From positions 1,232 to 65,231 of the forward strand of contig CAZHWM010000012.1 of assembly GCA_964535935.1 (NCBI GenBank): 64,000 bases of DNA, written 5' to 3'. Shown here one piece after another: positions 4,066 through 64,000 of this stretch. Position numbers and translations under genes: made by a program. This DNA is from an uncultured Planctomycetales bacterium. GTDB lineage: Bacteria; Omnitrophota; Gorgyraeia; Zapsychrales; Zapsychraceae. The notes below the pieces were generated by a model. The model saw only the letters and a program-made list of their open reading frames with translations. It was not told the DNA's origin and searched no databases. The stretch's first letter is position 1; every line of letters begins with the position of its first letter.

Positions 4066-4088
4066 AGAAAATTGTATATCATTAAAAA

Positions 4089-5213: not shown

Positions 5214-5264
5214 TTTTGTATCAATTAGTTTAATCCTATTATTAATTGTAAGAAATTCCTACTA

Positions 5265-6380
5265 ATGAAGATATCAATTGATATAAGGAGTCTGCAGGCG
5301 AATCGGAAAACCGGGGTATGGGTATATACCCAGAATCTAGTAGAGGCTATATCCCGCATAGATAAAAATAATATGTATTATCTTATAGGCTCTGGTATAC
5401 GTGTAAAAAGGGAAGATATTATTATTGATGTGGGAGTAAATTTTCGAAAAATCATATTACGTATACCAGATAGAGAATTTATGTATAAAGATATATTATG
5501 GAACAAAGTGGTTCTTCCTATATCCTGTCTAAAACAAAAGATTGACATCTTTCATCAGCCAGTAGGCCATAGCCTGCCTATGTGTGGCAGGTTTAAGAAG
5601 ATAATAACCATCCATGATTTAAGAACCCTACACATAAAAGATTTTCTTCCACAAGACATAGATGCTATGAAAAGGGCATGTAAGATTGCAGATGCTATTA
5701 TAGCTATTTCTGAATTTACTAAAAAAGATATACTGCAGCATTTAGATGCTGAGGAAAACAAGGTTCATACAATTTATAATGGTATAAGTACCAAAATAAA
5801 AAAGATTAAAGACGAAGTTTTATTAGAACATTATAGAAAAAAATACAGCTTGAATAAACCGTTTATTTTTTGCCTTGGTATGGTCCCAAGAAAAAACATT
5901 CCAAGGTTATTAGACGCCTTTGCTAAAAGTAAATATGTCAAAGATGTATTATTGGTGCTTGCAGGCTCGAGCGGGGGACATTTGCCTCAATATAAACAGA
6001 AGGTCAAAGAATTGAGGATAGAAGATTATGTCCGTATGTATGAGAATGTGCCAGAAAAGGATTTGTCCTATTTTTATAGCGATGCTGTTGGTTTTATTTT
6101 CCCGTCGTTAGTTGAAGGATTTGGCCTGCCTCTGTTAGAGGCGCAGAAATGTGGGGCCCCTGTAGCATGTTCTCATACATCTGCCTTGCCTGAGGTGGTA
6201 GGGGATAGCGCATTATTGTTTGACCCCTATAGTATAAATGAGATATCCTCTGCCATAGATAAGATAGTCTCTAATGCAAGATTACGGGAATCGCTTACAA
6301 AAAAAGGATACGAAAATCTGAATAGGTTTAATTGGGATAAAAGTGCGAAACAGCTGGTAAAGATATATGAAGGCCTTTAA
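5265..6380 (+). CDS. GT4 glycosyltransferase
   Basis: LVEGFGLPLLEAQKCGAPVACSHTSALPEVVGD; paralogous in layout to 4089-5213. Confidence 0.85.
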   Translation: MKISIDIRSLQANRKTGVWVYTQNLVEAISRIDKNNMYYLIGSGIRVKREDIIIDVGVNFRKIILRIPDREFMYKDILWNKVVLPISCLKQKIDIFHQPVGHSLPMCGRFKKIITIHDLRTLHIKDFLPQDIDAMKRACKIADAIIAISEFTKKDILQHLDAEENKVHTIYNGISTKIKKIKDEVLLEHYRKKYSLNKPFIFCLGMVPRKNIPRLLDAFAKSKYVKDVLLVLAGSSGGHLPQYKQKVKELRIEDYVRMYENVPEKDLSYFYSDAVGFIFPSLVEGFGLPLLEAQKCGAPVACSHTSALPEVVGDSALLFDPYSINEISSAIDKIVSNARLRESLTKKGYENLNRFNWDKSAKQLVKIYEGL

Positions 6381-6906
6381 ACAGATAATATTTCTTACTA
6401 CTGATTTAAAAAGATGGAAAACCCCATCTATTAAAGAACGTTTTTATAATGTTTTTGAGTTTGGGATTTGGGCTACTATTTTGTATAGGATGAGTAGGAT
6501 GTTGTTCCTATTAGATATTCCTGTGGTCAAAATTGTATTTCGTTTAGCATCATTTTTGATATTTAAATTAAGTGAGATATTGTTTAAGGTATCAATACCT
6601 GCATCAGTAGATATTGGCCCGGGCTTATATATTGGGCATATAAGTTCTATATTTTTCCATCATACAGTTAAGGCAGGCAAAAATCTTAGTGTCGGGCAGG
6701 GGGTTACTATAGGAACTAGAGGTGTTGGTCACAAAGGGGCACCTGTTATAGGAGATAACGTGTATATAGGTACAGGAGCCAAAATCCTTGGGGCTATTAA
6801 TATAGGCAATAATGTTAAGATAGGGGCAAATGCAGTGGTTATTCATGACGTCTCTGATAACTCTACAGCTGTAGGGATCCCTGCAAGGATTGTTGATAAG
6901 GAGTGA
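6367..6906 (+). CDS. Hexapeptide-repeat O-acetyltransferase (serine acetyltransferase-like)
   Basis: Left-handed beta-helix repeats: VGQGVTIGTRG..GAPVIGDNVYIGTGAKILGAINIGNNVKIGANAVVIHDV. Confidence 0.8.
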   Translation: MKAFKQIIFLTTDLKRWKTPSIKERFYNVFEFGIWATILYRMSRMLFLLDIPVVKIVFRLASFLIFKLSEILFKVSIPASVDIGPGLYIGHISSIFFHHTVKAGKNLSVGQGVTIGTRGVGHKGAPVIGDNVYIGTGAKILGAINIGNNVKIGANAVVIHDVSDNSTAVGIPARIVDKE

Positions 6907-6907
6907 G

Positions 6908-8260
6908 ATGTTTCATATTATTAAAGAGATAATACCACCTATAATTCTTTTAGTAGGATTTCTTTTCGCTATTATAGGGCTTACAAACAAACAAAGATGG
7001 ACGTTGCTGTTCATTATCCCTTTTTTCCCTTTACGTAACGTGGTCTATAAACTCCATCCATATCCGTGCGGAAAGGATTTTATTGATATCCTTCTTATCT
7101 CATTGCTTCTTGGGCTTATTTTTAACGCAACCCGTCAACGTAACGGTCGGGTATTTGAAAAATCCCCACTTAATGCTATAGCCTTTATTACTATTATATA
7201 TACTTATATATCATTGTGGAGAGGATATTTTACTTTAGGCTATTTTGCTCCTTTTGATTTATCTGATGAAAGGTTACAGTTTTGGAAAAACTATTCTATT
7301 TTTCCTATATTATATTTTCTTACCTTTAATATTATTAAAGATAAAAAATGGATATGGAGAACAATTGTTGTAATGTCTCTTACGATGGTTGTAATGGATT
7401 ACTATCAACTTATGCAATTGTCATGGTTTTCCAATATAGCTTCCAGAAGTAAAGTTAATGGAACCTTTGTATATCTTGGGCCTAATGAGATAGCGGCATT
7501 TTATTCACAGTATACAATAATACTTATGAGTCTATTTTTTGTTATGAGAAGTAAATTACTTAAATTTATTTTAGGAGGGCTTATTTGGGTTAATATATAT
7601 TGTATTGCCTTTTTATTTTCTAGGGCTGCGTATATAAGTTTAGTAGTGGGCTGTTTCTTCCTTTTCGCTGCACGCAGGAGATTTTTATTAATACCACTTA
7701 TATGTGTGGTTATCTTTTGGCAGACACTCCTGCCTCAAAAAGTTAAAGATAGGATAAATATGACGACAAATCAATATGGTGAATTGGATGTATCCTCTGA
7801 GATGAGGATTATAATATGGGAACAGAGTTTGAATTTATTTAAAGACAGCCCTGTATTAGGAATAGGATTAAAGACATTTAAGTATATGGGGTTTGCATTA
7901 GGTGATACTCATAATATTTACGTTAAATTTTTGGTTGAGCAAGGTATAATAGGATTTCTTTTATTTTTAATCCTTATATGGAAAATGTTTAGGTTGGGAT
8001 GGCAGTTATATAAAAATGGAGATGACCCGCCGGCTAAGGCACTTGGACTAGGATTTGCTATATGTATCGTTGTATTATTGGTCAATAATATGTTTGGTGA
8101 TAGGTGGTCATATTTACCATTGAGTGCATATTTGTGGATATTTGCGGGGTTGGTTGCAAGGTTAAATACATTATCAAACCAGCCTAACATGAACAAGAAA
8201 GAAATACTGATGAAGGAGAAAGAAAGAATTAAAAGGATGTATGGAATAGATATAAAATAA
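6908..8260 (+). CDS. O-antigen ligase / Wzy-type polymerase family membrane protein
   Basis: About 10-12 TM helices. Wzy_C-like core FLFSRAAYISLVVGCFF and GIGLKTFKYMGFALGDTHNIYVKFLVEQGIIGFLLF. ATG 6908 is preferred over the track start at 6890. Confidence 0.7.
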   Translation: MFHIIKEIIPPIILLVGFLFAIIGLTNKQRWTLLFIIPFFPLRNVVYKLHPYPCGKDFIDILLISLLLGLIFNATRQRNGRVFEKSPLNAIAFITIIYTYISLWRGYFTLGYFAPFDLSDERLQFWKNYSIFPILYFLTFNIIKDKKWIWRTIVVMSLTMVVMDYYQLMQLSWFSNIASRSKVNGTFVYLGPNEIAAFYSQYTIILMSLFFVMRSKLLKFILGGLIWVNIYCIAFLFSRAAYISLVVGCFFLFAARRRFLLIPLICVVIFWQTLLPQKVKDRINMTTNQYGELDVSSEMRIIIWEQSLNLFKDSPVLGIGLKTFKYMGFALGDTHNIYVKFLVEQGIIGFLLFLILIWKMFRLGWQLYKNGDDPPAKALGLGFAICIVVLLVNNMFGDRWSYLPLSAYLWIFAGLVARLNTLSNQPNMNKKEILMKEKERIKRMYGIDIK

Positions 8261-45356: not shown

Positions 45357-45372
45357 TGGCATAGTTTTTGCT
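45357..45372 (+). promoter_or_regulatory. Sigma-54 (-24/-12) promoter candidate
   Basis: TGGCAT-AGTTT-TTGCT against consensus TGGCAC-N5-TTGCW. The GG (45358-59) and GC (45370-71) are 12 nt apart as in the consensus. It lies 61 nt upstream of the PEP-CTERM gene ATG, in a 294-nt AT-rich intergenic region. Confidence 0.6.
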
Positions 45373-45432: not shown

Positions 45433-46164
45433 ATGAAAATAGTATTTAAATATTTAGGTGTTTTAATATTAACTGTTTTAATGAATCTATTTATCTATAT
45501 TTATCCTGCGTCGGCTATTACATTTACTCAAATTCCTTTTGAATGGGAACATTTCGATATTTCAGATTTAACAGCTTATGATAGTGATGATGATAGTAGT
45601 TTAGGCCCTATTGCATTGGGATTCTCCGTTACAATTGGCGGAGCAACATATGACCATTTTGACATGGATTCCAATGGTTATATTGAATTGTTATCGGCTA
45701 CACAGCCACCTAATGGATATGGATATGGGGCAATACAAGAATTGATTGATGATAATCCAACATCAACTTATTTACTTGCGGCCTACGATGATCTATCTTC
45801 CGATGATTATGGATACTATGGTTATGCTCTTGAATCTAACCGGGCTATTTTTTATTATAACACCGAAACATACTACGACGAAGATCATGAACTTCTGAAC
45901 AATTTTGAAGTAATCCTTAATTCGGATGGAAGTGTTCAATGGAATTTCAATTATGCAGATTATGATGACTATGATTATGATTTGTTTTCTGGTCTTTATT
46001 TTGGTAATACTGGAACCTTGTATGAGTTATATCGTGATTATATTCCAGAACAAGAATCGTGGGTCTATGGTAGGAATTCAAACAATGTCGTTCCAGAACC
46101 GATAACAATGCTTTTATTTAGCACCGGGTTAGTAGGATTTGCAATAAAACGACGAAAAGCTTAA
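45433..46164 (+). CDS. Secreted PEP-CTERM sorting-domain protein, acidic and Asp/Tyr-rich
   Basis: Signal peptide ending ASA. C-terminus VPEPITMLLFSTGLVGFAIKRRKA, which is PEP plus a TM helix plus a basic tail. RBS AAGGAG. Confidence 0.85.
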   Translation: MKIVFKYLGVLILTVLMNLFIYIYPASAITFTQIPFEWEHFDISDLTAYDSDDDSSLGPIALGFSVTIGGATYDHFDMDSNGYIELLSATQPPNGYGYGAIQELIDDNPTSTYLLAAYDDLSSDDYGYYGYALESNRAIFYYNTETYYDEDHELLNNFEVILNSDGSVQWNFNYADYDDYDYDLFSGLYFGNTGTLYELYRDYIPEQESWVYGRNSNNVVPEPITMLLFSTGLVGFAIKRRKA

Positions 46165-49842: not shown

Positions 49843-51564
49843 ATGAAAAGAAAAATTTTAAAGATTATAGTTTCCTCTTTTATCGCTGTATTGATTATAG
49901 GAAATATATTTTCTATCCCTTTATCCATGGCACAGGATAGTAAAAATAATACTATTTGTGGGGTTTATATTAGTGGAGCAGGGTGCCATAATTGTGCGGT
50001 TACGGATCCAATATTATTTCAAGACTTTACAAGGCGGTTTCCTAATCTAGTGCTGATAGAATATGAGATTTATAAAGCTGCAAAAGAGAATAGAGAGGCT
50101 AAAACAGAATATTTTTCTTCCTATCTTGGTGGCAGAGGAGGTGTCCCTTTTTTAATTTTTAATAAAGAACATACTTTTTTAGGACGGTTAAATGTGCCTA
50201 CGGCAGGCAATTGGATCGCAACCATATCTCGAAATCCTTGTCCTATGGCTAATGGAAGTTCTGTTGCATTTGAAGATATTGATATTTCCTCTTTACCCGG
50301 GAAAATAAATATATGGACAAAAAATAGGGTGTTAATTAAGGAAGGTGGAAATATCAGGAATAATAAAATATTAAAGAAGATTATTCTTGCCAAGGATGTA
50401 ACAGAGGTTTTAAAAAAAGTAAAACATCGTGTAGTGGCTCCCGTGCCCGTAGAGATCTCTCTTGCAGAAATAAATTTTGATCACGCTGCTATTATTGACG
50501 GATGGCGACTACAATGGAACGATGATTCTACTAATAAAAAAACATCTGTAGTGGCCTCTGTGAAAAAGACTAATAGTCGAAGACATTCCTATAAACCCAG
50601 TCATAAACTCAATACAAATATGCTTATTAGTATCTTGTTAGGTTGTATAGGTATATTATTAATTCTTGGGGCGTTTATAAGGGTAAAAAAAGTGGAAGAG
50701 GGTTTGTTAATTTGCATCAGATTTGATAAAACAAGCAAAGATTTTCTAATAGCAGGAATATCTTCTCTATTATTGATGGCATTTTTTATGTTAGCGCCAA
50801 CGATATCTCCTGATGCACTTGCTAGGGCAGGATATAGAATGCCTTTACCTTTATTTACTTTCTTTATTGCATTAATAGATGGGTTTAATCCATGTAATAT
50901 ATTTGTGTTGATATGTTTGTTGTCGGTTATTATAGCTACTTCTGAATCTAGGATGCGGCTTTATACCGTTGCTTTTAGCTTTGTATTTATGGTCTATATT
51001 ATATATTTTCTTTTCATGGCAGCATGGTTGAAGGTATTTCAATTGATGAATTTTGTAACCCCTTTACGTATCGGGATAGCTTTTATAGCTCTTGTTGCTG
51101 GACTCATAAATTGTAAAGAACTTCTTTTCTTTAGAAAGGGGATTACGCTTACAATTCAGGACAAACATAAAGGGCCTTTATTGAAGAGAATAACTGCAAT
51201 GAGATCAGTTATTGAGAAAGGTTCATATCCTGTATTAATATTATCTTCAATTGGTTTGGCAACTTTAGCTTCATTGGTAGAGCTTCCATGTACGGCAGGA
51301 TTTCCTATTATATTCACCGGAATATTGTCTGCCAAATCCTTAGATAATACATGGTTTTATTATTTATATATTGCTTTTTATAATATAATATATGTGATGC
51401 CTTTGATGGTTATTGTGGCTATATTTATTTATACTTTTCGGACGCATCAGATTACAGAACGGCAGGTTCAGATTATAAAATTTATCGGTGGCTTGATAAT
51501 GATATTATTGGGAATAATATTATTAGTGAATCCAGCATTGATAGGGATACCTGTAATTCGATAA
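49843..51564 (+). CDS. Fusion of a periplasmic thioredoxin-fold CxxC domain with a DsbD/CcdA-like polytopic membrane domain
   Basis: Signal peptide, GVYISGAGCHNCAV (CxxC) and a cis-Pro-like GGVPFLIF. Then about 7-8 TM helices with intramembrane Cys motifs LIDGFNPCNIFVL and LVELPCTAGFPI. Confidence 0.5.
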   Translation: MKRKILKIIVSSFIAVLIIGNIFSIPLSMAQDSKNNTICGVYISGAGCHNCAVTDPILFQDFTRRFPNLVLIEYEIYKAAKENREAKTEYFSSYLGGRGGVPFLIFNKEHTFLGRLNVPTAGNWIATISRNPCPMANGSSVAFEDIDISSLPGKINIWTKNRVLIKEGGNIRNNKILKKIILAKDVTEVLKKVKHRVVAPVPVEISLAEINFDHAAIIDGWRLQWNDDSTNKKTSVVASVKKTNSRRHSYKPSHKLNTNMLISILLGCIGILLILGAFIRVKKVEEGLLICIRFDKTSKDFLIAGISSLLLMAFFMLAPTISPDALARAGYRMPLPLFTFFIALIDGFNPCNIFVLICLLSVIIATSESRMRLYTVAFSFVFMVYIIYFLFMAAWLKVFQLMNFVTPLRIGIAFIALVAGLINCKELLFFRKGITLTIQDKHKGPLLKRITAMRSVIEKGSYPVLILSSIGLATLASLVELPCTAGFPIIFTGILSAKSLDNTWFYYLYIAFYNIIYVMPLMVIVAIFIYTFRTHQITERQVQIIKFIGGLIMILLGIILLVNPALIGIPVIR

Positions 51565-51752: not shown

Positions 51753-52910
51753 TTGGGGGGAAAAAAAATAGAAATAATTGGTAAGTTGCCTGAGAGTTTG
51801 CCAGAGGATGAGCAGAGAGATTTTCTATATAGTTTAATAGATACTATTCCTAAAGAGGTAATGTTGACGGGTGAAGACGGGCGTATTGTATTTGCTAATA
51901 GAGCATGTATTAGAGGAATAGGTCTTAGTAAGGAATATATCTTAGGCAGGCACATAACAGAGGTCTATGATATGAACATGGGCCCTCGTAAATGGAAAAA
52001 AGATGTATTTGATAAACTTAGGGGAAAGAAATATATTATTCGTTATATTTTTAATCGAAATGTTAATAAAAAGAGACACAAAATGATGGAGTTTTGTGCC
52101 TCATATTTTAAATATAAGTGCAGAGAGTATATATTATCTATAGTATGGGAAATTAGTACAAAGATGCAGATAGAGCAAATCAGCAGAGAGTCGGAGAAGA
52201 TGAAGGCACTGCAGCAGTTGATAGCTGGGACTACTCATGAGATACAATATCCTCTAAAGGCATTGCTTGAGAGATTAGATACTCTTGTAAAGAAATACAA
52301 ACATAGAGATTTTGAATATATAGGATATAAAGAGTTTAAGGATATTATAGTTACTCTGGAAAGAATGCGTGATCAGGCAAGATATTGTTTTGATACCACA
52401 GAGAGATTGTTGAGCATTAATAAAAGAAAGCTAGGGATAAAAAATAAGAATTGTCATGTAGTTTCTATTATAAAAGATGTGGTTAATGAGTTAAAACATG
52501 ATCTTGAACTTGCAAACATAAAACTAAAACTTAAGTTAACAGGGGATGTCCCAAGGGTAGGGATAGGTTCGATTGAATTAAAACAAGTTTTGACGAATAT
52601 AATTACAAATTCTCTTCAATCAATGCCTACTACTGGCGGGCAAATATGCCTAAAGGCTAATGCATGTTTAGATAAAGATATGGTATTAGTAGAATGTAAA
52701 GATAATGGTATAGGTATTTCTAAAGAAAATCTACCTCGTGTATTTGAACCATTTTATACTACAAAACAAAGGGGGCTTGATAAGAACTCAGGTCTTGGTT
52801 TATCTATTGTTTATTCCATAATAAAGGCATGTAATGGAGAGATTTCTATTAAGAGTGATCTTAAAAAAGGCACAGTTGTAAGGTTAATGCTGCCTGTATA
52901 TAAAAAGTAA
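51753..52910 (+). CDS. Cytoplasmic PAS-domain sensor histidine kinase
   Basis: PAS (LIDTIPKEVMLTGEDGRIVFAN), H-box AGTTHEIQYPL, N box NIITNSLQS, G boxes DNGIGI and GLGLSIV. TTG start. Confidence 0.85.
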   Translation: MGGKKIEIIGKLPESLPEDEQRDFLYSLIDTIPKEVMLTGEDGRIVFANRACIRGIGLSKEYILGRHITEVYDMNMGPRKWKKDVFDKLRGKKYIIRYIFNRNVNKKRHKMMEFCASYFKYKCREYILSIVWEISTKMQIEQISRESEKMKALQQLIAGTTHEIQYPLKALLERLDTLVKKYKHRDFEYIGYKEFKDIIVTLERMRDQARYCFDTTERLLSINKRKLGIKNKNCHVVSIIKDVVNELKHDLELANIKLKLKLTGDVPRVGIGSIELKQVLTNIITNSLQSMPTTGGQICLKANACLDKDMVLVECKDNGIGISKENLPRVFEPFYTTKQRGLDKNSGLGLSIVYSIIKACNGEISIKSDLKKGTVVRLMLPVYKK

Positions 52911-54232: not shown

Positions 54233-56194
54233 ATGAGGTTAAAACCTATAGCAGTTATACTTGGCCTGTCGTTTATCTTTGGAATAGCTATAGTAGAAGC
54301 GACCCGTGTACTTGGTTATGATGTGTTGGGTTCTGAGCCCAATTCTGTATACGTATTCTTTATTGGGTGTTTTGGTTTATTTGGCTTGTCTATTTTTTAT
54401 ACACTGGAAGCGGATAGTAGATTAATGAGAGTTTTGTTTTTGAAAGAACAGAGGTTGAGTGATTTGGTCGATGATTTGGATGTTGGTCTTTTTATGTATA
54501 GGATAAAGGATAAAAAGATTGTTAAATGTAATAATTCTTTCGCTAGGTTGTTGGGATATGACGATGTTGACGAATGTATATTGAATGCTTCTATAATTTT
54601 TTCGTCGGACGAGTTTAGAGAAAGTTCTGGTAGGCCCTTTTGTTTTGTTGATAGAAGGATAGTGAAGTTTAAGAGAAAGGATAATTCTGATATATGGTTA
54701 AATTGTTCAGTAAGGGCTGCTAATAAGAAGGGCTATATTGAGGGTATCGCAATTGATATAACTGAAACAAAACGAAAAGAGGAATGGTTAAGAAAGTTAT
54801 CAGCAGCTGTTGATCAGAGTACTTGTTCTATAATTATTACGGATAGAAGGGGTAATATTGAGTATGTAAATAAAAAATTTACAGAAGTTACAGGATATAC
54901 TCTAGAGGATGTGAGCGGAAAAAGCTCAGCAGTATTAGAATATTGTAAGTCTGCTACAGATAATTATAAAGAACTTTTTCGCACTATAAATAAGGGAGAA
55001 GAATGGGTTGGAGAATTACATAGCTGTAAAAAAAATGGTGAACCTTTTTGGGAGTTCGCATCTATATCCCCAATTTGTGATAGTAATGGGAATGTTACTC
55101 ATTTCCTTGCTATAAAAAATGATATAACAGAGACCAAATTAGTACAGGATAAGTTAAAAAAATTACAGGATAATTTACGTGTTGAAAAGATCAAGCTGGA
55201 GAGGGTGTTGGATATAGATCGTAAAATGGGAGAAATTTTGGATATTAATCATTTGGTTGATTTTATTGTGGATAAGTCGACCGAAATCCTTGAGGCTGAA
55301 CGATGTTCTCTTATGCTGGTGGACACGGAATCAAAGGAATTATTAATAAGGGGAGCAAAAGGTATAGATGGGAAAGTTATAAAAGAGGCGCGAATTAAAA
55401 TAGGTGACGGCATATCTGGATTTGTAGCTAAGAATGGTAATCCTTTGCTTGTTAATGATATAAGGACAAGTAGATTTAAAGGAAATACAAAATATGGTAG
55501 TAATTATAAAACGAAGTCATTTATTAGTGTCCCGATAAAGGTCCATAATAAAATAGTAGGAGTGGTAAATATTACGGATAAAAAACCTGATAAGGATGGT
55601 TATACGCGTATATTCAATGAAATCGATCTTAAAATATTATGTACTATTGTTCGACAAGCTTCAATTGCTATTGAGAATGCAAATTTTTATAGAAAATTGG
55701 AATATTTATCAGTAAGAGATGAAATTACAGGAGTTTTTAATCATCGTTTTTTTGTGAGGAGCCTTGATAGAGAAATTGCTCGCGTAAAGCGGTATTCTTG
55801 TCCTCTTTCTCTTATGATGATAGATATAGATGATTTTAAGTCTTATAATGATAAATATGGAGAACAAAAAGGAGATAAGTTGTTAAAAGATATTGCTTAC
55901 ATTCTAAGGAATGTTTCCCGTGACGTAGATATTGTATGTCGTTATGCTGGGGATGAATTTGCTATTATTCTTCCCGAAACTAATATTGCTGATGCAGAAA
56001 AACTTGCTATAAGGATTACTTATGCCTTGGAAACCTCATCTTTCAATGATAGAGTGACAGTTAGTATTGGGTTAATTCAATATTCGAATAATAATGAAAG
56101 CAGAATTGATTTTGTAATGAGAGCAGGGCAGGCTTTAGTTCAAGCTAAGGGAGGTGAGCGAAATAACAGAAATAATGGTCTAGTTTCTTTTTAG
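54233..56194 (+). CDS. Membrane-anchored PAS-PAS-GAF-GGDEF diguanylate cyclase
   Basis: Two N-terminal TM helices, two PAS modules, a coiled coil, a GAF domain (ERCSLMLVD..ISGFVAKNGNPLLVND) and a GGDEF domain. The active-site variant is AGDEF (RYAGDEFAIIL) with an RxxD I-site (RDVD) five residues upstream. Confidence 0.85.
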   Translation: MRLKPIAVILGLSFIFGIAIVEATRVLGYDVLGSEPNSVYVFFIGCFGLFGLSIFYTLEADSRLMRVLFLKEQRLSDLVDDLDVGLFMYRIKDKKIVKCNNSFARLLGYDDVDECILNASIIFSSDEFRESSGRPFCFVDRRIVKFKRKDNSDIWLNCSVRAANKKGYIEGIAIDITETKRKEEWLRKLSAAVDQSTCSIIITDRRGNIEYVNKKFTEVTGYTLEDVSGKSSAVLEYCKSATDNYKELFRTINKGEEWVGELHSCKKNGEPFWEFASISPICDSNGNVTHFLAIKNDITETKLVQDKLKKLQDNLRVEKIKLERVLDIDRKMGEILDINHLVDFIVDKSTEILEAERCSLMLVDTESKELLIRGAKGIDGKVIKEARIKIGDGISGFVAKNGNPLLVNDIRTSRFKGNTKYGSNYKTKSFISVPIKVHNKIVGVVNITDKKPDKDGYTRIFNEIDLKILCTIVRQASIAIENANFYRKLEYLSVRDEITGVFNHRFFVRSLDREIARVKRYSCPLSLMMIDIDDFKSYNDKYGEQKGDKLLKDIAYILRNVSRDVDIVCRYAGDEFAIILPETNIADAEKLAIRITYALETSSFNDRVTVSIGLIQYSNNNESRIDFVMRAGQALVQAKGGERNNRNNGLVSF

Positions 56195-56275: not shown

Positions 56276-56303
56276 TTGACAAAATAGGTATATCCTTTAT
56301 AAT
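56276..56303 (+). promoter_or_regulatory. Sigma-70 type promoter candidate
   Basis: TTGACA, a 16-nt spacer, then TATAAT, 60 nt upstream of the ATG at 56364. Confidence 0.5.
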
Positions 56304-56363: not shown

Positions 56364-57065
56364 ATGCAGAATTTTATTTTCAAAAAGGTATATCTTTCTG
56401 ATAATGATTTAATGTATAAAATATATAAACTTAGATTTCAAGTTTATTGCAAAGAATGCGGTTTTATTAAGGAGGAAGATTACCATGATCAAATAGAATT
56501 TGATGAATACGATGCCAAACAGGCTGTCCATTTTGCTGCATTAAATGAGGATGGAGAACTTGTGGGAACAATGAGAATGATTTTACCCGGAGATCTACCA
56601 CTCCCGATAGAAAAACATTGCCCTGATGTAAAAATTGATAAATACGCTTTTGAAGCAGGCAGAGCAATGGAGATATCCAGATTGGTTATTAGTAAACATC
56701 TTAGACGCAGGAAAGATGATGGAAGATATTACGGGCCTCAGGTTAGGGACAAAGAGGGAACAGGTAAGGATGGAAATCAGTTTGTCCGTAGGGTAAGACC
56801 AATGGCATTCGGTTTATATCGAGAGGTATATAGGGAATGTAAACGGAGAGGTATTACGCATTGGTATGCATTAATGGAGAAGGGATTATGGTTGTTGTTG
56901 CGTATACACGGATTTAATTTTGAACGTATAGGAGATGAAGTTGATGTATATGGTCCTGTTTGTCCATATCTTGGGAGAACAGAGGTATTTGAAAAAGAAA
57001 TAAAAGAAAAATTCCCTGATTTTTTTAATTACTTCACGGAGCCAGATGTAAGTTTCTGTAATTGA
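56364..57065 (+). CDS. N-acyl amino acid synthase (FeeM-like; PEP-CTERM/exosortase-associated acyltransferase type)
   Basis: IYKLRFQVYCKECGFI, HFAALNEDGELVGTMRM, MEISRLVI and GITHWYALME follow the LuxI/FeeM-like GNAT-related pattern. The genomic context has PEP-CTERM-type regulators. Confidence 0.7.
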   Translation: MQNFIFKKVYLSDNDLMYKIYKLRFQVYCKECGFIKEEDYHDQIEFDEYDAKQAVHFAALNEDGELVGTMRMILPGDLPLPIEKHCPDVKIDKYAFEAGRAMEISRLVISKHLRRRKDDGRYYGPQVRDKEGTGKDGNQFVRRVRPMAFGLYREVYRECKRRGITHWYALMEKGLWLLLRIHGFNFERIGDEVDVYGPVCPYLGRTEVFEKEIKEKFPDFFNYFTEPDVSFCN

Positions 57066-57075
57066 TGGGTAATTT

Positions 57076-59784
57076 ATGAAGACTGACAGCCATCGAATAA
57101 AGTTTAGGCATATCTTTAAGGTATTCTCGGAGATAGCAAAACGTTTTTCCAATAAAACGGCTATTATTCTCACAAAACGTGGATATGGCTGCATATCTAA
57201 TTTAAGTTATGCTACTCTTTACAATAATTCCCTTAAAATAGCGTCTTTTTTAAAACATAAAGGGATAAATCCACAAGATAAGATTGCTATTATTTTAGAA
57301 GATCAACTTGAATATGCTGAGGTATTTTTCTCAGTCATGGCAGTTGATGGTGTAGCTGTAGCTTTTGATGTCCAATTACCTTCATCACAACTGGGAGAAT
57401 TATTGCATCATGCAGAAATAAGATATGTAATTACTACGAAAAATCTTAAAAATAGGATAATAAATGTTATAGATACAAAAAAATTAATTGTGTTAGATGA
57501 TGAACATACGCGTGATGAAATAGCAGAATCTATACCTTTGAGTGAAAATGAGTATGGTCAGAATACTGGTGATGAGGCAGTTATCTTTTATACCTCAGGT
57601 TCGACTGATACTCCAAAGGCAGTTGTATTAACTCATACTAATTTATTAGCTAATTTTAATTCTATTCTACAACTAAATTTGGTAGGAAAGGACGATGTTG
57701 TCTTATCTATTCTCCCTCTACACCATGCCTTTGCCTTCACCACGACATTTTTATCACCATTAATGATAGGAGCTACAGTAGCATATCCTAACAGTATCGC
57801 TTCTGCAGACCTTCTATATTGTATGCAAACCGCACATATTACCGTATTTGTAGGAGTACCCCAAATTTTTTCTATCATACATAAATTTATTTCAAGGAAA
57901 TTTGATACGTTATCGATAATTACTAGAGGTATGTTGTCATTATTATCCAGTATCTTTTTTAAGATACGTATATATACAGGTTTTAATTTAAATAAACTAT
58001 TGTTTAAAAGGATACATGTCTCTTTTGGCAGTCGTCTTCGTTTTATGGTTTCCGGTGGGGCTAGGTTAGATACTGACATGGCTTATGATTTTATGAAATG
58101 GGGCTTTACTATATTAGAAGGATATGGTTTAACAGAAACCTCCCCTGTAGTTACATTTAATCCAATTAGCAAACCTAAAATAGGTTCTGTTGGGAAGCCT
58201 TTACCTAATGTGCAAGTAAAAATTGTTGAGAAGGACAACGATGGGATAGGAGAGATAATTGTTAAAGGCGACAACGTTATGAAGGGATATTATAAATTAC
58301 CAGAAGCTACGAGTGAAGTTATAAAAAAAGGATGGTTTTTTACAGGAGATTTAGGATATTTAGATGAAGATAATTATCTTTATATTACTGGAAGAAAGAA
58401 TGATATGATTGTTTTAAGCTCGGGAAAGAATATTAATCCTGAGGAAATAGAGACATATTATGAAAAGAATCCTTTTATAAAAGAAATTTGCATATTGTCC
58501 TTTACATCAAGCAGGCTTAAAGGGGTGGACAGTCTGTCGGCAATAATAGTAATAGATGAGGAGGAATTCAAACGTAATAATGAGACAAGAATTCAAGAAA
58601 AAATAAAATGGGAATTGGATACTATGGCAGCAGGGTTGCCTAGTTATAAACGTATTAAGCGTTTTGTAATAAGCAAGACACCATTGCCAAGGACAAGATT
58701 AGGTAAGATTATGCGTTATAAGGCTAAAGAATTGTTCGAGCAGCTTAGTAATTTATCTGTCTCTGATAAAAGTCAAGAAGGGCAATGCGAAAAGATAGAT
58801 ATATATTATGAGGATGTATATAATATAGGGGTGTCTTTTATAGAAAATACTTTGAAAAGAAAGGTTTCTGCTTCTGATCATTTAGAACTTGACTTAGGCC
58901 TTGATTCTTTGGAAAGAATAGAGCTACTCTTAAATTTACAAGAACGGCTTAATTTAAAGTTGTCGGACGAGTCTGCTATGGATTTTTTTATGTGTAATAC
59001 AATAGGTGAACTGACCGAACAATTGAAAAGACATGTAGATGCTATTAAAGAAAAGAACACTAAAGTCAGTTCTATTCAATGGTCTGATGTTCTTAATGAA
59101 GATTTGCAGCCAGAGACATCAAAGAAGATATGTCTTAGTCCTAGTTTATACGATAAGATAATCAATATACCTTTTATACTATTGTTTAAACTTTTTTTTC
59201 GAATTTTTTATTTGTTAAGAACAGAAGGAAGGGAATCTCTGAAGAATATATCAGCCTGTATTATTACGCCCAATCATACTAGTTATTTGGATGGGCTTTT
59301 TATTTTAAGTGCATTGCCTATAAAGGTTATATTTAATACGTATTTTGTGGGATTTGCCAATATACTAGAGTCGCCTATTTTGAAACCCTTTGTCAGGACG
59401 GCACGGCTTATTCCAATCAACGCTAATTTTAACCCTACGGAGGCACTTAAGGCATGTGCTTATCTTTTAAGGCATTCTAAGATTATTTGTTATTTCCCTG
59501 AAGGACATCGTTCTATTGATGGAAGAGTTAACGAATTTAAGAAAGGGATAGGAATCTTGATTAAAGAATTAAATGCATCTGCTCTTCCTGTTTATATAGA
59601 AGGAGCATTCGGGACATGGTCCAGGGGACAGAAGTTTCCCCGGTTAAAACCTGTTAAGGTAAAATTTGGTAAGCCCATATCCGCAACTCATCTGTATTCT
59701 CACCATGATAAATTTGATGGAGATGTGTATGAAGTTATTGCCGAAAATCTTAGACAAAAACTAATAGAGATTAGCAACAAATAG
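57076..59784 (+). CDS. Tri-domain fusion: fatty acyl-AMP/CoA ligase, acyl-carrier domain and PlsC-family acyltransferase
   Basis: AMP-binding motifs IFYTSGSTDTPKAVVLTH, GYGLTET, TGDLGYLDEDNYLYITGRKND. Carrier motif LDLGLDSLERIELL. Acyltransferase HX4D (NHTSYLDG) and FPEGHRS. Confidence 0.85.
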   Translation: MKTDSHRIKFRHIFKVFSEIAKRFSNKTAIILTKRGYGCISNLSYATLYNNSLKIASFLKHKGINPQDKIAIILEDQLEYAEVFFSVMAVDGVAVAFDVQLPSSQLGELLHHAEIRYVITTKNLKNRIINVIDTKKLIVLDDEHTRDEIAESIPLSENEYGQNTGDEAVIFYTSGSTDTPKAVVLTHTNLLANFNSILQLNLVGKDDVVLSILPLHHAFAFTTTFLSPLMIGATVAYPNSIASADLLYCMQTAHITVFVGVPQIFSIIHKFISRKFDTLSIITRGMLSLLSSIFFKIRIYTGFNLNKLLFKRIHVSFGSRLRFMVSGGARLDTDMAYDFMKWGFTILEGYGLTETSPVVTFNPISKPKIGSVGKPLPNVQVKIVEKDNDGIGEIIVKGDNVMKGYYKLPEATSEVIKKGWFFTGDLGYLDEDNYLYITGRKNDMIVLSSGKNINPEEIETYYEKNPFIKEICILSFTSSRLKGVDSLSAIIVIDEEEFKRNNETRIQEKIKWELDTMAAGLPSYKRIKRFVISKTPLPRTRLGKIMRYKAKELFEQLSNLSVSDKSQEGQCEKIDIYYEDVYNIGVSFIENTLKRKVSASDHLELDLGLDSLERIELLLNLQERLNLKLSDESAMDFFMCNTIGELTEQLKRHVDAIKEKNTKVSSIQWSDVLNEDLQPETSKKICLSPSLYDKIINIPFILLFKLFFRIFYLLRTEGRESLKNISACIITPNHTSYLDGLFILSALPIKVIFNTYFVGFANILESPILKPFVRTARLIPINANFNPTEALKACAYLLRHSKIICYFPEGHRSIDGRVNEFKKGIGILIKELNASALPVYIEGAFGTWSRGQKFPRLKPVKVKFGKPISATHLYSHHDKFDGDVYEVIAENLRQKLIEISNK

Positions 59785-59939
59785 AGGGGGTAACTTAGTT
59801 TTTCTCGTCTAATATTTAACCTCTTTATAGTTGACACCCCTATATTTACTATGATAAGATTTAGTTCCTCATAGGAATAATAGAGGGGAATTAAAAGGGA
59901 TGTTGGAGATAATACTCCAATTAAAGAGAAGGGGAGAGT

Positions 59940-60812
59940 ATGAAAAAAAATATTGTGACAAAACCTAATATAGGAGCCGTAGCCCTGTTAAAAGAATCGA
60001 TAACTGTTTTCTTTGAACATAAAGAGATTTTATTCCCCTTTTGTATAACGGCCTTTATTCAGCTTCTTTTTTTAGAAATATTATATTTTTATCCTCGCTA
60101 TCCCCTTAATATATTTTTTGGTCCATTAATACGAAGGAAGTCTGAATTGTATATGCATTATCCTTTTAATTTTATATACTTACCCGAATTATATCAATAT
60201 GTGCAAATATTTGTATATATCTTTATTAGTGTGTATTTTGTTGGAGTAGCAGTCTCGATTATTCAATCTATAAATAGAGGAGAAAAAATACAAATAAAAC
60301 AGGCCTTCCAAAGAGCTTCTTCCGTATATGTACATTTAGTACTTAATTCTTTGTTGGCCTTTGGTTTAGTTATGTGGTTATTTCGTTTAACAAAATTATT
60401 GATTCTACGCGCAATGCAGATACGTTCGACAACGGGGATATTTTTTATATTAAAAAAATCAGTTATTTTAGGAGCACCTTATCTCAATCTTATCTTTAGT
60501 ATCCTTGTTACTGTTCTTTTTCTTTATGTAATTCCTATTATTATTATAGAACAGAAAAAAATATTTTCTGCTCTATATATAAATTTTAAACTGTTATTTC
60601 GTTCTTTGAGGCTTAGTTTTGTAGTAGTTCTTATGCCCACATTGATTTATGTTCCTGTATTAATGCTTCGGGGTATACTTGATAGTGGAATATTCCCTCC
60701 TGAGATGAGGGTTATTATTATGGTGCTTGGTATAATGCTAACTATTTTTATTGATGCAACGATATATACATCATCCACTATTTTTTATCTTATAAACAAG
60801 GAAAAATCATGA
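59940..60812 (+). CDS. Polytopic membrane protein, function unknown
   Basis: About 6 TM helices, no motif I recognise. ATGA overlap with the downstream TPR gene. Confidence 0.6.
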   Translation: MKKNIVTKPNIGAVALLKESITVFFEHKEILFPFCITAFIQLLFLEILYFYPRYPLNIFFGPLIRRKSELYMHYPFNFIYLPELYQYVQIFVYIFISVYFVGVAVSIIQSINRGEKIQIKQAFQRASSVYVHLVLNSLLAFGLVMWLFRLTKLLILRAMQIRSTTGIFFILKKSVILGAPYLNLIFSILVTVLFLYVIPIIIIEQKKIFSALYINFKLLFRSLRLSFVVVLMPTLIYVPVLMLRGILDSGIFPPEMRVIIMVLGIMLTIFIDATIYTSSTIFYLINKEKS

Positions 60813-61741
60813 AAAAGACAATTCTTATTTTCATTATCATTTTAATTACTGTATTTTGTATACTAACCTTTTTGGATTATAAGGGCCGATACATTGCGGA
60901 GAGAAATCTGTGGCATATTAACAAAAAATTGGAAGAAATTGTAAAAGACCCTAAAGCGGTTCCTGATACTGCTTTTTATAAGGTTGTTAGAGAATATGAA
61001 GATTTTATAAAGGAATTTCCAAACTCAGAATTAGTTCCTATAGCAGATATGTTATTAGCCCGGGCCTATATTGCAAAAAAAGATTATGAGCAGGCTAGGA
61101 GTATACTTTTTCAACTAATAAAAAAATATCCGAATAATTCAAAAGTAGAAATTAGGGCATTGGCAGAAATAGCTAATATTTATGCAATGGAGAATAAATG
61201 GAATAAGGTTATTAATACTTATGATGTTGTATTGAGAAAATATCCTTATACGCCTTTAGGAATGAGGATTCCTATGATGAAGGCTGAAGTATATATAAAA
61301 AAGAATAATAAAGAAAAGGCAAAAGAGCAAATAAAGAATGCAATCAAATATTACAGTAACATAGTAAATAAGAAACAGAATACGGTAGTAGGGTTAAATG
61401 CTATGTTGTTAATTGCTTCATGCCATGAGTCTTTGGGGGATAATCAGGAAACAATTAATACATTAGAAGAAACTTTTAATAAATTTGCGGACTCAGGTTT
61501 ACTGACTCCTAACATGGTTATAGGAATAGTAAGGCATATCAATACAATTTCATTAGCCAAGATGGGCAATCTTGATATTGCCATTAATGTTTATAACAGA
61601 TTTATAAAAAAGCATCCTAATCATCCTTTTAATAAAATTTTTTCTGAGATTATTGGCCAACTTAAACACATAGAAAAACAATTAAATAAAAAGCAATCTT
61701 CAAAGACAAAGACTAAGGTAGAGGCAGGCGTTACGAAATGA
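60809..61741 (+). CDS. Membrane-anchored TPR-repeat protein
   Basis: N-terminal anchor helix, then TPR/YbgF-like repeats (LLARAYIAKKDYEQARSILFQLIKKYPN..). ATGA overlaps on both sides. Confidence 0.7.
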   Translation: MKKTILIFIIILITVFCILTFLDYKGRYIAERNLWHINKKLEEIVKDPKAVPDTAFYKVVREYEDFIKEFPNSELVPIADMLLARAYIAKKDYEQARSILFQLIKKYPNNSKVEIRALAEIANIYAMENKWNKVINTYDVVLRKYPYTPLGMRIPMMKAEVYIKKNNKEKAKEQIKNAIKYYSNIVNKKQNTVVGLNAMLLIASCHESLGDNQETINTLEETFNKFADSGLLTPNMVIGIVRHINTISLAKMGNLDIAINVYNRFIKKHPNHPFNKIFSEIIGQLKHIEKQLNKKQSSKTKTKVEAGVTK

Positions 61742-63060
61742 GCGTAAAACAAGAATCTATTTTAAGCGATTTATCCCAGAAGGAATTATTTAAAAAAATA
61801 GGGGACATATGTGCGGTAGTAAATACTGTTATTACAGCGAAAGATCTTTTGGAAATATCTCTGCGCAAGACCTTGGATTTATTTGGAGCCACACGCGGTT
61901 CCATTTTTATAGTTAATAAAAATGGAGTAGATCTGATATTAAAAGCGGCAGTTGGGATGAAAAGAGGAGAAAAAGAACAGATGGTGAAGCGAATGGGGGA
62001 GGGGATAGTAGGCAAGGTTGCCCAATTTAAAAGTCCTATATATGTAAATGATATATCACAAGACCATCGTTTCCGTAATTTTAAGGCAAGGGGTAGCTAT
62101 AATACTCCTTCGTTCATATGCTCTCCTTTACTGCTTAAGGATCAACTTATAGGAGTAATTAATATAACAGATAAAGAATCTGGGCAGTTATTTAATGAGA
62201 GTGATTTACAATTATTAGACTTTCTTTCTAGTCAGATAGCATTAAATTATCGGAGGATACAACTTTATCAAAAATTAAAAAAAACTATAAAAGAAACCCG
62301 CAATTTAAAAGACAGGTTGGGACAAAGTGATCAAGAAACAGCTAATCTTAAAAAACAGATAGTAATCAATGAGCGGCTTGCAACAATTGGGAAACTTGCA
62401 GGTGGGATAGCTCATGAATTTAACAATCCTTTAGATGGAGTAATGCGGTATACAAATTTATGTCTTGAACATGTCAACGAAGATGACGTTGTCCGGGGAT
62501 ATCTTTTAGAAATAAAGCATGGACTTCATCGTATGGCCAAGATAGTTAAAAATTTGCTTGATTGTTCACATGGAGGATTCGCTATTAATAAGGAAAAAAT
62601 AGACTGTGTAAAAGTCATAGAGAGAGCTATTGCATCTATGCAAACAGAGATATCTCATAAGAATATTAAAATCATAAAAGATATCGATAAAGAGTTACCT
62701 TTAATATTAGACCTTGGCTTGGAAAGGATAATTTTGAATCTTATACGTAATGCTGTTGAGGCAACATATGATAAAGGAGAAATAACGGTATCAGCTACAA
62801 GTAAAGATAATATGTTGATATTAGAAGTTAAAGATACTGGTTGTGGAATACCATCTGATAAAATTGAGCAAATATTCGAACCATTTTTTACAACTAAAGA
62901 TATAGAAAAAGGATGTGGGTTAGGTTTAACAATAGTAGGCGAAATAGTAAAAAGTTATGATGGAAAAATCAATGTAGAAAGCACCCCTGGGAAGGGGACC
63001 CAATTTACTGTTGTGTTGCCTATACAACAACAGGAAAAGATATCTATTTCATACAGATAA
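61738..63060 (+). CDS. Soluble GAF-domain sensor histidine kinase (PrsK-like core)
   Basis: GAF (TRGSIFIVNKNG..GIVGKVAQFKSPIYVNDI..LIGVINITDK), H-box GGIAHEFNNPL, N box LIRNAVEA, G boxes DTGCGI and GLGLTIV. No TM segment. Confidence 0.85.
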   Translation: MSVKQESILSDLSQKELFKKIGDICAVVNTVITAKDLLEISLRKTLDLFGATRGSIFIVNKNGVDLILKAAVGMKRGEKEQMVKRMGEGIVGKVAQFKSPIYVNDISQDHRFRNFKARGSYNTPSFICSPLLLKDQLIGVINITDKESGQLFNESDLQLLDFLSSQIALNYRRIQLYQKLKKTIKETRNLKDRLGQSDQETANLKKQIVINERLATIGKLAGGIAHEFNNPLDGVMRYTNLCLEHVNEDDVVRGYLLEIKHGLHRMAKIVKNLLDCSHGGFAINKEKIDCVKVIERAIASMQTEISHKNIKIIKDIDKELPLILDLGLERIILNLIRNAVEATYDKGEITVSATSKDNMLILEVKDTGCGIPSDKIEQIFEPFFTTKDIEKGCGLGLTIVGEIVKSYDGKINVESTPGKGTQFTVVLPIQQQEKISISYR

Positions 63061-63092
63061 ACTAAATTATTTTTTTATATTAATTAAGAGCT

Positions 63093-64000
63093 ATGATAGT
63101 TCCAGATAAGAAAAATTATTTAATACTTGTTGTAGATGATGAGCCGTTGATACGGGAGTCTCTTTATGAAATTTTGAAAATAGAAGGATATCGTGTAGAA
63201 ATGGCATCTAGTGGTGAAGAGGCCTTGGAGGTTATTAAGAAAGAGAAAGTAGATATAGTCTTAACAGATATGAAACTCCCATACATGAGTGGGATTACGC
63301 TTTTATCAGAGACAAAAAAAATTGCTCCAGAGACAGAGGTTATTTTAATAACTGGTTATGGGTCGATAGAAACAGCAGTGGATGCAATGAAAAAGGGAGC
63401 CTATGATTATGTTACTAAGCCTATAAATGATAATGAGATAAAAAGTCTCATTAATAAGATTGTAGAAAAGGCCTATATCCTTGAAGAAAATAGAGTATTG
63501 AAGGAGCTGATTGCCCGGGAAAATAGGAGTTCATATTGTAATATGATAGGGGCAAGTCCTAAAATGCAAAAGGTTTATCATATTATTGATTCTGTGGCTA
63601 GTACTAATGCTACAATATTAATAACTGGAGAGAGTGGGACAGGAAAAGGCTTAACTGCAAGGGCTATCCATGAGATGGATAGGAATCGGAAAGATAAACC
63701 TTTTGTAGAAGTGAGCTGTGGGGCGATTTCTGAAACTTTATTAGAAAGTGAACTTTTTGGGCATGTAAAAGGTGCATATACAGGAGCTATAAAAGATAAG
63801 GAAGGAAGATTTGAATATGCTAAAGGAGGGACTATATTCCTTGATGAGATAGATGCCTTTTCTCTTGGATTACAAGTTAAATTATTAAGGGTATTACAAG
63901 ATGGAGTATTTGAACGTGTGGGAGATAATATAACACGTAAAACAGATGCAAGGATTATTGTAGCTACGAATCGGAATTTACTCGAGCTCGTAGAAAAAGG
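63093..64000 (+). CDS. Sigma-54-dependent response regulator (NtrC family, PrsR-like); the 3' end is beyond the window
   Basis: Not in the ORF track because it has no stop in the window. My translation gives REC (LILVVDDEP..VDIVLTDMKLP), AAA+ Walker A GESGTGKG, the sigma-54 contact loop GAYTGA (GAFTGA type) and Walker B IFLDEID. Confidence 0.85.
   Translation, partial: MIVPDKKNYLILVVDDEPLIRESLYEILKIEGYRVEMASSGEEALEVIKKEKVDIVLTDMKLPYMSGITLLSETKKIAPETEVILITGYGSIETAVDAMKKGAYDYVTKPINDNEIKSLINKIVEKAYILEENRVLKELIARENRSSYCNMIGASPKMQKVYHIIDSVASTNATILITGESGTGKGLTARAIHEMDRNRKDKPFVEVSCGAISETLLESELFGHVKGAYTGAIKDKEGRFEYAKGGTIFLDEIDAFSLGLQVKLLRVLQDGVFERVGDNITRKTDARIIVATNRNLLELVEK

Follow-up and report, generated by a model that had tools for sequence, protein, structure and literature searches.

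A conserved Omnitrophota operon with a soluble GAF kinase, a sigma-54 activator and a new membrane protein family as a candidate regulatory set for PEP-CTERM genes

Results

Four genes at the 3' end of the window

We analysed a stretch of 64,000 nucleotides (nt) of contig CAZHWM010000012.1 (hereafter the window), from an uncultured Planctomycetales bacterium that GTDB places in the phylum Omnitrophota. At its 3' end lie, one after the other, the genes for a polytopic membrane protein, a membrane-anchored TPR protein, a histidine kinase and a response regulator (Table 1). A previous interpretation made from the letters alone (the sequence-only reading) had taken these four genes for a split or minimal version of the PrsK/PrsR/PrsT set, which regulates PEP-CTERM genes in Proteobacteria. 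As regards the parts list, that reading was borne out: the open reading frames (ORFs) and their domains, i.e. a membrane protein with six helices, a TPR protein, a soluble GAF kinase and a receiver (REC)/sigma-54 activator, were all confirmed, and the ATGA overlaps of start and stop codons that couple the first three genes were read directly in the sequence at 60809 and 61738. The membrane protein has many homologues, and gene order and tight spacing recur in ~25 loci; the four ORFs are real genes rather than chance ORFs.

The set continues beyond the window end with a fifth gene, which encodes a PocR+GAF protein of ~340 amino acids (aa) with no detected output domain. This gene lies 3' of the regulator gene in the orthologous locus L006, the cassette proteins of which are 77-90% identical to those of the window, and in nearly all other loci. 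We refer to the five genes as the cassette.

Table 1 Features of the window and of related loci (locus handles begin with L)
Feature	Locus	Position	Strand	Remarks
Polytopic membrane protein ORF, 290 aa	window	59940..60812	+	undescribed family, no Pfam match
Membrane-anchored TPR protein ORF, 310 aa	window	60809..61741	+	TPR_6/TPR_14; ATGA overlap with preceding stop
Cytoplasmic GAF-HisKA-HATPase_c histidine kinase, 440 aa	window	61738..63060	+	Pfam; ATGA overlap with preceding stop
REC + sigma-54 AAA+ response regulator, N-terminal 302 aa	window	63093..64000	+	ATG at 63093; ORF ends at window edge
Sigma-70-type extended -10 promoter, putative cassette promoter	window	59831..59860	+	TTGACA-N-TGATAAGAT; consensus scan
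Sigma-54 -24/-12 promoter, putative regulator target	window	45357..45372	+	TGGCATAGTTTTTGCT; only TGGCAYN5TTGCW match in 64 kb
PEP-CTERM protein gene, 243 aa, Asp/Tyr-rich, putative regulated gene	window	45433..46164	+	C-terminus VPEPITMLLFSTGLVGFAIKRRKA
Membrane and TPR genes, then regulator directly, without kinase	L016	10831-13110		
Membrane and TPR genes, then regulator directly, without kinase	L035 (distant)	4052-7283		
Membrane and TPR genes, then PEP-CTERM gene only, without regulators	L036	8001-10761		
P0176, 643 aa: GT4 priming transferase (MraY/WecA-like, PF00953) fused at its C-terminus to a domain of the 290-aa family	L034	6633-8564		
FeeM-like acyltransferase	window	56364-57065	+	TIGR03694, 172.1 bits, above the cutoff of 111.95
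AMP-ligase/acyl carrier protein/PlsC-type acyltransferase fusion	window	57076-59784	+	Pfam AMP-binding, PP-binding, Acyltransferase
Perfect TTGACA-16-TATAAT promoter, 60 nt 5' of the FeeM-like gene	window	56276-56303		12/12 matches; consensus scan
PAS-PAS-GAF-GGDEF diguanylate cyclase, 653 aa	window	54233-56194		directly 5' of the FeeM operon

The cassette is conserved across Omnitrophota next to exosortase and PEP-CTERM genes

A genome scan with the membrane protein returned 21 loci, from Candidatus Omnitrophota metagenome-assembled genomes (MAGs), "uncultured Planctomycetales" MAGs and one "bacterium"; the neighbouring genes were labelled by BLASTP against reference proteins and with precomputed Pfam matches. 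The five-gene order membrane protein, TPR protein, kinase, regulator and PocR+GAF protein was present in ~25 loci reached via the membrane protein and in 2 reached via the kinase. All junctions within the cassette fall between -20 and +32 nt, and in 17 of 24 loci the TPR gene overlaps the membrane-protein gene by 4 nt; the coupled order seen in the window is kept across Omnitrophota.

The genes in front of the cassette also follow a near-invariant order, namely a polysaccharide deacetylase, a GT2 glycosyltransferase, an exosortase (~275 aa), EpsI, a short Bac_transf priming transferase and zero to eight PEP-CTERM genes, and a DUF134 gene is often found 3' of the PocR+GAF gene. Exosortase/EpsI/Bac_transf/PEP-CTERM genes stand immediately 5' of the cassette in at least 17 loci, which supplies the PEP-CTERM association whose lack would have counted against the sequence-only reading. 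As for PrsK, the kinase gene is followed by a sigma-54 regulator gene in the window and in ~25 loci. The exosortase passed TIGR02602 in both copies scanned, and EpsI was scanned in L004. Because these two exosortases pass the general model, score just under the XrtA model and fall below the other named subtypes, we regard them as an untyped XrtA-like form. Separately, a trio of genes is conserved 5' of the deacetylase/GT2/exosortase genes (L004 3521-5558, L005, L017 and L018), of which one carries a PF07963 prepilin-type motif and two are without Pfam match.

In the sublineage of the window (window, L006, L008, L010, L012 and L030), the upstream neighbours are instead the TIGR03694 acyltransferase and the ligase fusion listed in Table 1, and in L010 and L030 a small PEP-CTERM gene lies between these neighbours and the cassette. 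Where exosortase genes are not adjacent (window, L006, L008 and L030), the membrane/TPR pair keeps together with the kinase and the regulator. A literature search that combined Omnitrophota and exosortase returned no relevant account. The cassette is a conserved and previously undescribed Omnitrophota operon, present in ~30 loci, of which the window holds the front end.

Sigma-54 promoters precede PEP-CTERM and Bac_transf genes

In each of 21 loci, the sigma-54 consensus TGGCAYN5TTGCW has exactly one match, which is invariably on the + strand and lies just 5' of the Bac_transf gene or of a small PEP-CTERM gene preceding the cassette. In the window, the ATG of the 243-aa protein is placed 60 nt past the element, and the protein scores 23.5 bits against TIGR02595 PEP_CTERM (cutoff 16). 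The element at 45357 and two boxes upstream of it are kept in the otherwise diverged intergenic region of L006.

Between -230 and -40 of the sigma-54 promoters, the 7-mers TGTCCTA, AACATGT, CAACATG and GTCATAG are enriched 14-25 fold relative to the rest of the loci. The same regions of L007, L009 and L013-L025 contain CAACATGTTG-type inverted repeats as well as TGTCATAG/TGTCCTAG direct repeats, the latter about one helical turn apart. The repeats 5' of the sigma-54 promoters may be sites for the regulator and perhaps also for the nearby DUF134 DNA-binding protein; specifically, the AACATGTT and TGTCCTA-type repeats are candidate sites for the helix-turn-helix (HTH) domain of the regulator. 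This layout of candidate upstream motifs and a -24/-12 element matches that of proteobacterial PEP-CTERM genes as described by Haft et al. (PMC1569441), where an activator motif is followed by a -24/-12 motif ~71 nt before the start codon.

The cassette itself is preceded by a different type of putative promoter. In 20 of 28 loci, a sigma-70 extended -10 element of the form TTGACN-N13-16-TGnTAnn[AC]T lies 38-196 nt 5' of the gene for the membrane protein; as a rule, no other match occurs in ~20 kb. In addition, a GC-rich hairpin with a T-run was seen by eye after the last PEP-CTERM gene and just before this element in many of the listed upstream regions. From the sigma-70 element and the hairpin, we predict that the cassette is a transcription unit of its own. 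At up to two mismatches, no sigma-54 promoter was found 5' of the cassette or of the FeeM operon in the window; both have sigma-70 elements instead.

The kinase and regulator resemble AtoS/AtoC and ZraS/ZraR without being equivalogs

The kinase consists of GAF, HisKA and HATPase_c domains, of which the last two pass their Pfam cutoffs and identify it as a HisKA-type kinase. Its H, N and G boxes are intact, the H-box AHEFNNPL is conserved in orthologues and a Kyte-Doolittle scan gave no hydrophobic segment. Its homologues comprise more than 120 clusters at 58-65% identity, all of them ~430 aa and soluble. In the window part of the regulator, Response_reg and Sigma54_activat were detected; full-length orthologues (454-468 aa) add AAA_lid_14 and HTH_8, giving a REC/AAA+/Fis-type HTH architecture. 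The regulator has the features of an NtrC-family enhancer-binding protein, i.e. a phospho-acceptor context DIVLTDMKLP, a Walker A motif GESGTGKG and, at residues ~224-233, a sigma-54 contact loop that reads GAYTGA in the window and in L006 and GAFTGA or GSFTGA in 19 other loci. In the contact loop of PspF, F-to-Y is the one substitution known to be tolerated.

We considered whether the two proteins form a generic NtrB/NtrC-like system of the AtoS/AtoC or ZraS/ZraR type that serves, for example, the FeeM lipid operon, in which case the synteny with exosortase genes would be coincidental. AtoS/AtoC and ZraS/ZraR are the best curated models for the catalytic half of the kinase and for the whole regulator, with which they share the HisKA/HATPase_c core and the REC-AAA+-HTH_8 architecture, respectively. 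The kinase scores 191 bits against AtoS and 146 bits against ZraS, and full-length regulator orthologues score 443-460 bits against AtoC; moreover, a tblastn search of plasmids with the regulator as query gave only ZraR/AtoC-type matches, the best at 42-44% identity. The neighbours in the window are also lipid-type enzymes and no exosortase is among them. However, the scores are far under the equivalog cutoffs (646 for AtoS and 714 for AtoC) and, therefore, the kinase and regulator are not equivalogs of these proteins. Unlike AtoS and ZraS, which sit in the membrane and receive periplasmic or PAS inputs, the cassette kinase is cytoplasmic, has a GAF domain and is found in an exosortase/PEP-CTERM context. 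Importantly, the promoter of the FeeM operon is a perfect sigma-70 one, with no sigma-54 promoter found, and the first gene of this operon itself belongs to the exosortase-associated family TIGR03694, while the single sigma-54 promoter per locus always stands before Bac_transf/PEP-CTERM genes and the PEP-CTERM linkage persists in distant lineages. Based on these considerations, a generic system of this kind is improbable.

A re-partitioned PrsK/PrsR/PrsT set is not supported

For comparison with the proteobacterial set, we used the curated models TIGR02916 for PrsK (cutoff 300), TIGR02915 for PrsR (502.6) and TIGR02917 for PrsT (312). As references, we used prsK, prsR and prsT as annotated by the Prokaryotic Genome Annotation Pipeline on a Vibrio alfacsensis plasmid, which was reached with an exosortase query followed by walking along the plasmid. 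The architecture that the sequence-only reading gave for PrsK was correct in that the Vibrio protein has 675 aa, the first ~290 of which are polytopic.

The likeness between the two systems is clear at the level of organization: both have a tandem of a kinase and an NtrC-type sigma-54 activator together with a TPR protein beside exosortase, priming transferase and PEP-CTERM genes, and both have -24/-12 promoters ~60-70 nt before the start of PEP-CTERM genes, with upstream motifs that in the Omnitrophota loci are candidate activator sites. In Aquincola, epsB2, prsK and prsR are likewise adjacent (PMC9850573). The sequence-only reading went further and proposed that the 290-aa protein is the freed membrane domain of PrsK and the 310-aa protein a short PrsT, so that the sensor is reassembled from separate polypeptides. 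Besides the similar parts list and the PEP-CTERM context, this proposal could draw on the ATGA coupling, which is real, on the polytopic N-terminus of PrsK, which is about as long as the membrane protein, and on the rank of PrsR among the NCBIfam models of the regulator, where, of four full-length orthologues scanned, three had it in second place and one in third.

Direct comparison of the proteins did not support common parts. None of 30 members of the membrane family matched TIGR02916, even at E<=10, and the family showed no sequence or profile similarity to PrsK N-termini. In hhalign, the 30-member alignment gave a probability of 0.2% against the single Vibrio PrsK and of 0.07% (E 0.7) against seven PrsK N-termini; the latter profile is thin because the search with the PrsK N-terminus gave only 7 homologues. 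The kinase scored 112.3 bits with TIGR02916, and this match covers only kinase residues 244-428 and profile positions 502-679. By BLASTP, it was 25% identical to Vibrio PrsK over the dimerization/phosphotransfer and catalytic domains only, with the GAF domain left unaligned, and a Pfam scan of Vibrio PrsK found no GAF domain. The TPR protein reached 25.9 bits with TIGR02917 and, by BLASTP against the 922-aa PrsT, gave generic repeat matches only (E 5e-4). For the regulator, the 302-aa window fragment scored 267.6 bits with TIGR02915 and full-length orthologues 382-417 bits, which is below the cutoff and always below the AtoC model.

Fused forms of the kinase and membrane protein were also absent from the best 150 representatives of the membrane family and from the 120 best homologues of the kinase; the sole fusion partner seen in these listed relatives was a glycosyltransferase. 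Large ORFs elsewhere in the window, scanned for a true PrsK or PrsT, instead encode PolA, GlgA, Rho, PEPCK, GlgX and a glycosidase-like protein. Thus, what stands of the earlier proposal is a sigma-54 set associated with PEP-CTERM and exosortase genes, while a split or minimal PrsK-PrsT does not; with three proteins below their cutoffs, a re-partitioned Prs set is highly improbable.

The differences from the Prs set extend to each component. The kinase is soluble, has a GAF domain and matches PrsK in the catalytic core only; the membrane part is a polypeptide of its own, from a family that is unrelated and undescribed; the TPR protein has ~300 aa, is membrane-anchored and closer to YbgF/BamD than to PrsT; a PocR+GAF gene is added; and the two sets differ in distribution (Omnitrophota versus Proteobacteria), with all cassette proteins below the curated cutoffs. 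On balance we favour, with moderate confidence, the view that the operon is not a split version of PrsK/PrsR/PrsT but a functional counterpart, to which no specific relationship is detectable.

The membrane protein defines a new family

A Kyte-Doolittle scan of the membrane protein gave ~6 hydrophobic helices, and the AlphaFold2 (AF2) model is all-helical with a predicted local distance difference test score of 90.5. Its homologues comprise 44 clusters at 36-77% identity, with 582 representatives at E<=1e-3. Apart from the P0176 fusion, the best 150 representatives are stand-alone proteins of ~260-310 aa or fragments thereof. A loop motif, PRYPL..FFGPLI....E.YLHYP, is invariant in the family, and a positive-inside reading of the AF2 helices would place this loop in the periplasm.

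A Pfam scan of the window protein returned nothing, a PDB search with the family profile no relative, and a Foldseek search of the AF2 model against the PDB no match at E<=1e-3; the best Foldseek matches, PNS1/CTL and CysZ, had TM-scores of only ~0.45-0.5 and were not accepted as homologues. The sole curated family with any similarity is that of the BPSS1780 membrane protein (NF041043). It aligns over most of the length of the 290-aa protein, with weak matches in 10 of 30 family members (best E 2e-4), but the window protein scores 20.8 bits against a cutoff of 90 and does not belong to it. The membrane protein family is, therefore, new in that it has no Pfam family, no above-threshold NCBIfam match and no PDB relative.

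The TPR protein has one hydrophobic helix at its N-terminus, followed by TPR_6/TPR_14 repeats. Its best family models are YbgF with 72 bits and BamD with 49 bits (cutoffs 90 and 81, respectively), and its sole PDB sequence match is CpoB. The TPR_6-type repeats are common to these proteins and the 310-aa protein; in contrast to them, the 310-aa protein has no Tol-Pal or BAM context, is membrane-anchored and is always paired with the membrane protein. Because a Cys in the N-terminal helix is not conserved over 17 TPR orthologues, a lipobox is not a conserved trait of the family. The Cys of the window and L006 proteins follows F and so does not form a lipobox; the distant relative L035 has one. 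In L005, the TPR gene has shrunk to 94 aa, i.e. the membrane anchor and ~60 residues.

A model for control of PEP-CTERM genes

Exosortase/PEP-CTERM sorting is widespread in environmental bacteria. To our knowledge, the PrsK/PrsR/PrsT set of Proteobacteria is the only regulatory system known for it. Haft et al. expected further regulators outside Proteobacteria (PMC1569441). The operon described here is a strong candidate for one such predicted regulatory set, in the uncultured phylum Omnitrophota. It offers testable parts in the form of the regulator, a sharply defined sigma-54 promoter with candidate enhancers, a predicted constitutive promoter of the regulator genes and a new membrane family tied to PEP-CTERM genes. 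More generally, it suggests that regulatory systems of like logic can arise from components without a detectable specific relationship, which argues for caution in naming such genes PrsK or PrsT by analogy.

Because of the genomic context and the sigma-54 promoters of the target genes, the link to PEP-CTERM regulation is well supported, and the cassette probably switches on genes for PEP-CTERM surface proteins via sigma-54. In our model, transcription of the operon would start at the sigma-70 extended -10 promoter (59831-59860) that it has to itself. The kinase would phosphorylate the receiver Asp of the activator, as suggested by the adjacency of their genes and by the behaviour of NtrC-class proteins. 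The activator would bind enhancer sites ~100-200 nt 5' of the TGGCAC-N5-TTGCT promoters and remodel the sigma-54 holoenzyme via its GAFTGA/GAYTGA loop, thereby turning on the PEP-CTERM genes and, in most relatives, the priming sugar-phosphate transferase beside the exosortase. In the window, the predicted target is the promoter at 45357 with the PEP-CTERM gene at 45433. Because the kinase has no membrane segment, its inputs would have to be cytoplasmic ligands bound by the GAF domain; the PocR+GAF protein perhaps relays a ligand input to the kinase, and the membrane/TPR pair, being translationally coupled to the kinase, might in addition pass on envelope information.

Several observations weigh against this model or parts of it. 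In the window, the chance expectation for a sigma-54 match is 0.16, with at least one match in 16 of 100 shuffles, and the putative target promoter lies 14.5 kb from the cassette. The enhancer motifs of the other loci are not clearly present in the AT-rich region of the window, and tblastn with exosortase, EpsI and PocR-GAF queries against the 64 kb detected no exosortase. The regulator is 40% identical to Vibrio PrsR and so no closer to it than to ZraR/AtoC. Finally, the membrane/TPR pair occurs without a kinase (L016 and L035) and without any regulator (L036), and in P0176 the membrane domain is fused to a GT4 transferase.

Because the pair is found without kinase or regulator and is fused to a GT4 transferase, it may not be a sensor. 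We therefore considered that the kinase, regulator and PocR+GAF protein are a whole cytoplasmic-ligand signalling system and that the membrane/TPR pair is a co-transcribed envelope accessory of the PEP-CTERM/exopolysaccharide machinery, e.g. a periplasmic scaffold or chaperone for exosortase substrates or for lipid-linked sugar intermediates. Consistently, in L016 and L035 the pair is together with the regulator and in L036 with a PEP-CTERM gene alone, and the distant member P0176, in which the partner is a polyprenyl-phosphate sugar transferase, lies in a polysaccharide locus, where the contig stops 38 nt past the gene. Because it is PEP-CTERM/polysaccharide genes, and not the kinase, that the pair is thus constantly associated with, its role may be that of an envelope accessory, as may that of PrsT; in Aquincola, prsT is needed for flocs to form and is not sigma-54-regulated (PMC9850573). 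An accessory would also agree with the nearest relatives of the TPR domain, i.e. the periplasmic scaffolds YbgF/CpoB and BamD, and with the degree of conservation, which is far higher for the kinase (~60% identity) than for the membrane protein (~40-48%) and for the TPR protein (~27-37%). On the other hand, the order membrane protein, TPR protein and kinase is kept with 4-nt overlaps across Omnitrophota, in the window sublineage the pair travels with the kinase and regulator and not with exosortase genes, and a soluble kinase with only a GAF domain would be unlinked from the envelope process under its control. An accessory role for the pair is plausible, though less likely than not.

A role of the pair in sensing would fit the soluble nature of the kinase, the phylum-wide coupling of the genes, the invariant loop motif, the confidently predicted fold and the persistence of the pair beside kinase and regulator. 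We consider such a role quite possible, although we place it somewhat below an even chance. The more specific version, in which the pair is a new envelope sensor of exosortase substrates or lipid-linked polysaccharide intermediates that controls the soluble GAF kinase by direct contact and arose independently of PrsK, is rather unlikely; if true, it would make a three-protein sensor, or with the PocR+GAF protein a four-protein sensor, for PEP-CTERM display in Omnitrophota. By analogy only, a cytoplasmic kinase or activator is fed by separate co-encoded sensors in CheA with its chemoreceptors and in the partner control of NifA by NifL. We claim no homology to CheA-type systems and, in contrast to them, no CheW-like adaptor is present in the cassette.

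Other features of the window

The FeeM operon and the diguanylate cyclase gene 5' of it precede the cassette (Table 1), and a diguanylate cyclase gene is also a neighbour in L001 and L006 (79% identity). The GAF domains of the cassette could have c-di-GMP as an input.

Upstream of these genes, there is a 573-aa ORF at 49843-51564 without NCBIfam match; next come, at 51753-52910, the gene for an orphan PAS histidine kinase of 385 aa with a TTG start and a 157-aa deaminase-like ORF. An exopolysaccharide locus occupies positions 1-21300 of the window and includes a fragment of a MOP-type flippase, several GT2/GT4 proteins, an O-antigen-ligase-like protein, a deacetylase, a tyrosine autokinase and an EPS_sugtrans priming transferase (443 bits); several of its genes have sub-threshold matches to the XrtA/PEP-CTERM families TIGR03097, TIGR03088 and TIGR03016. 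Nearly all sizeable ORFs of the window are on the + strand, the G+C content is ~33% and all 2-kb bins show a positive GC skew; in its entirety, the window seems to belong to a single leading-strand replichore.

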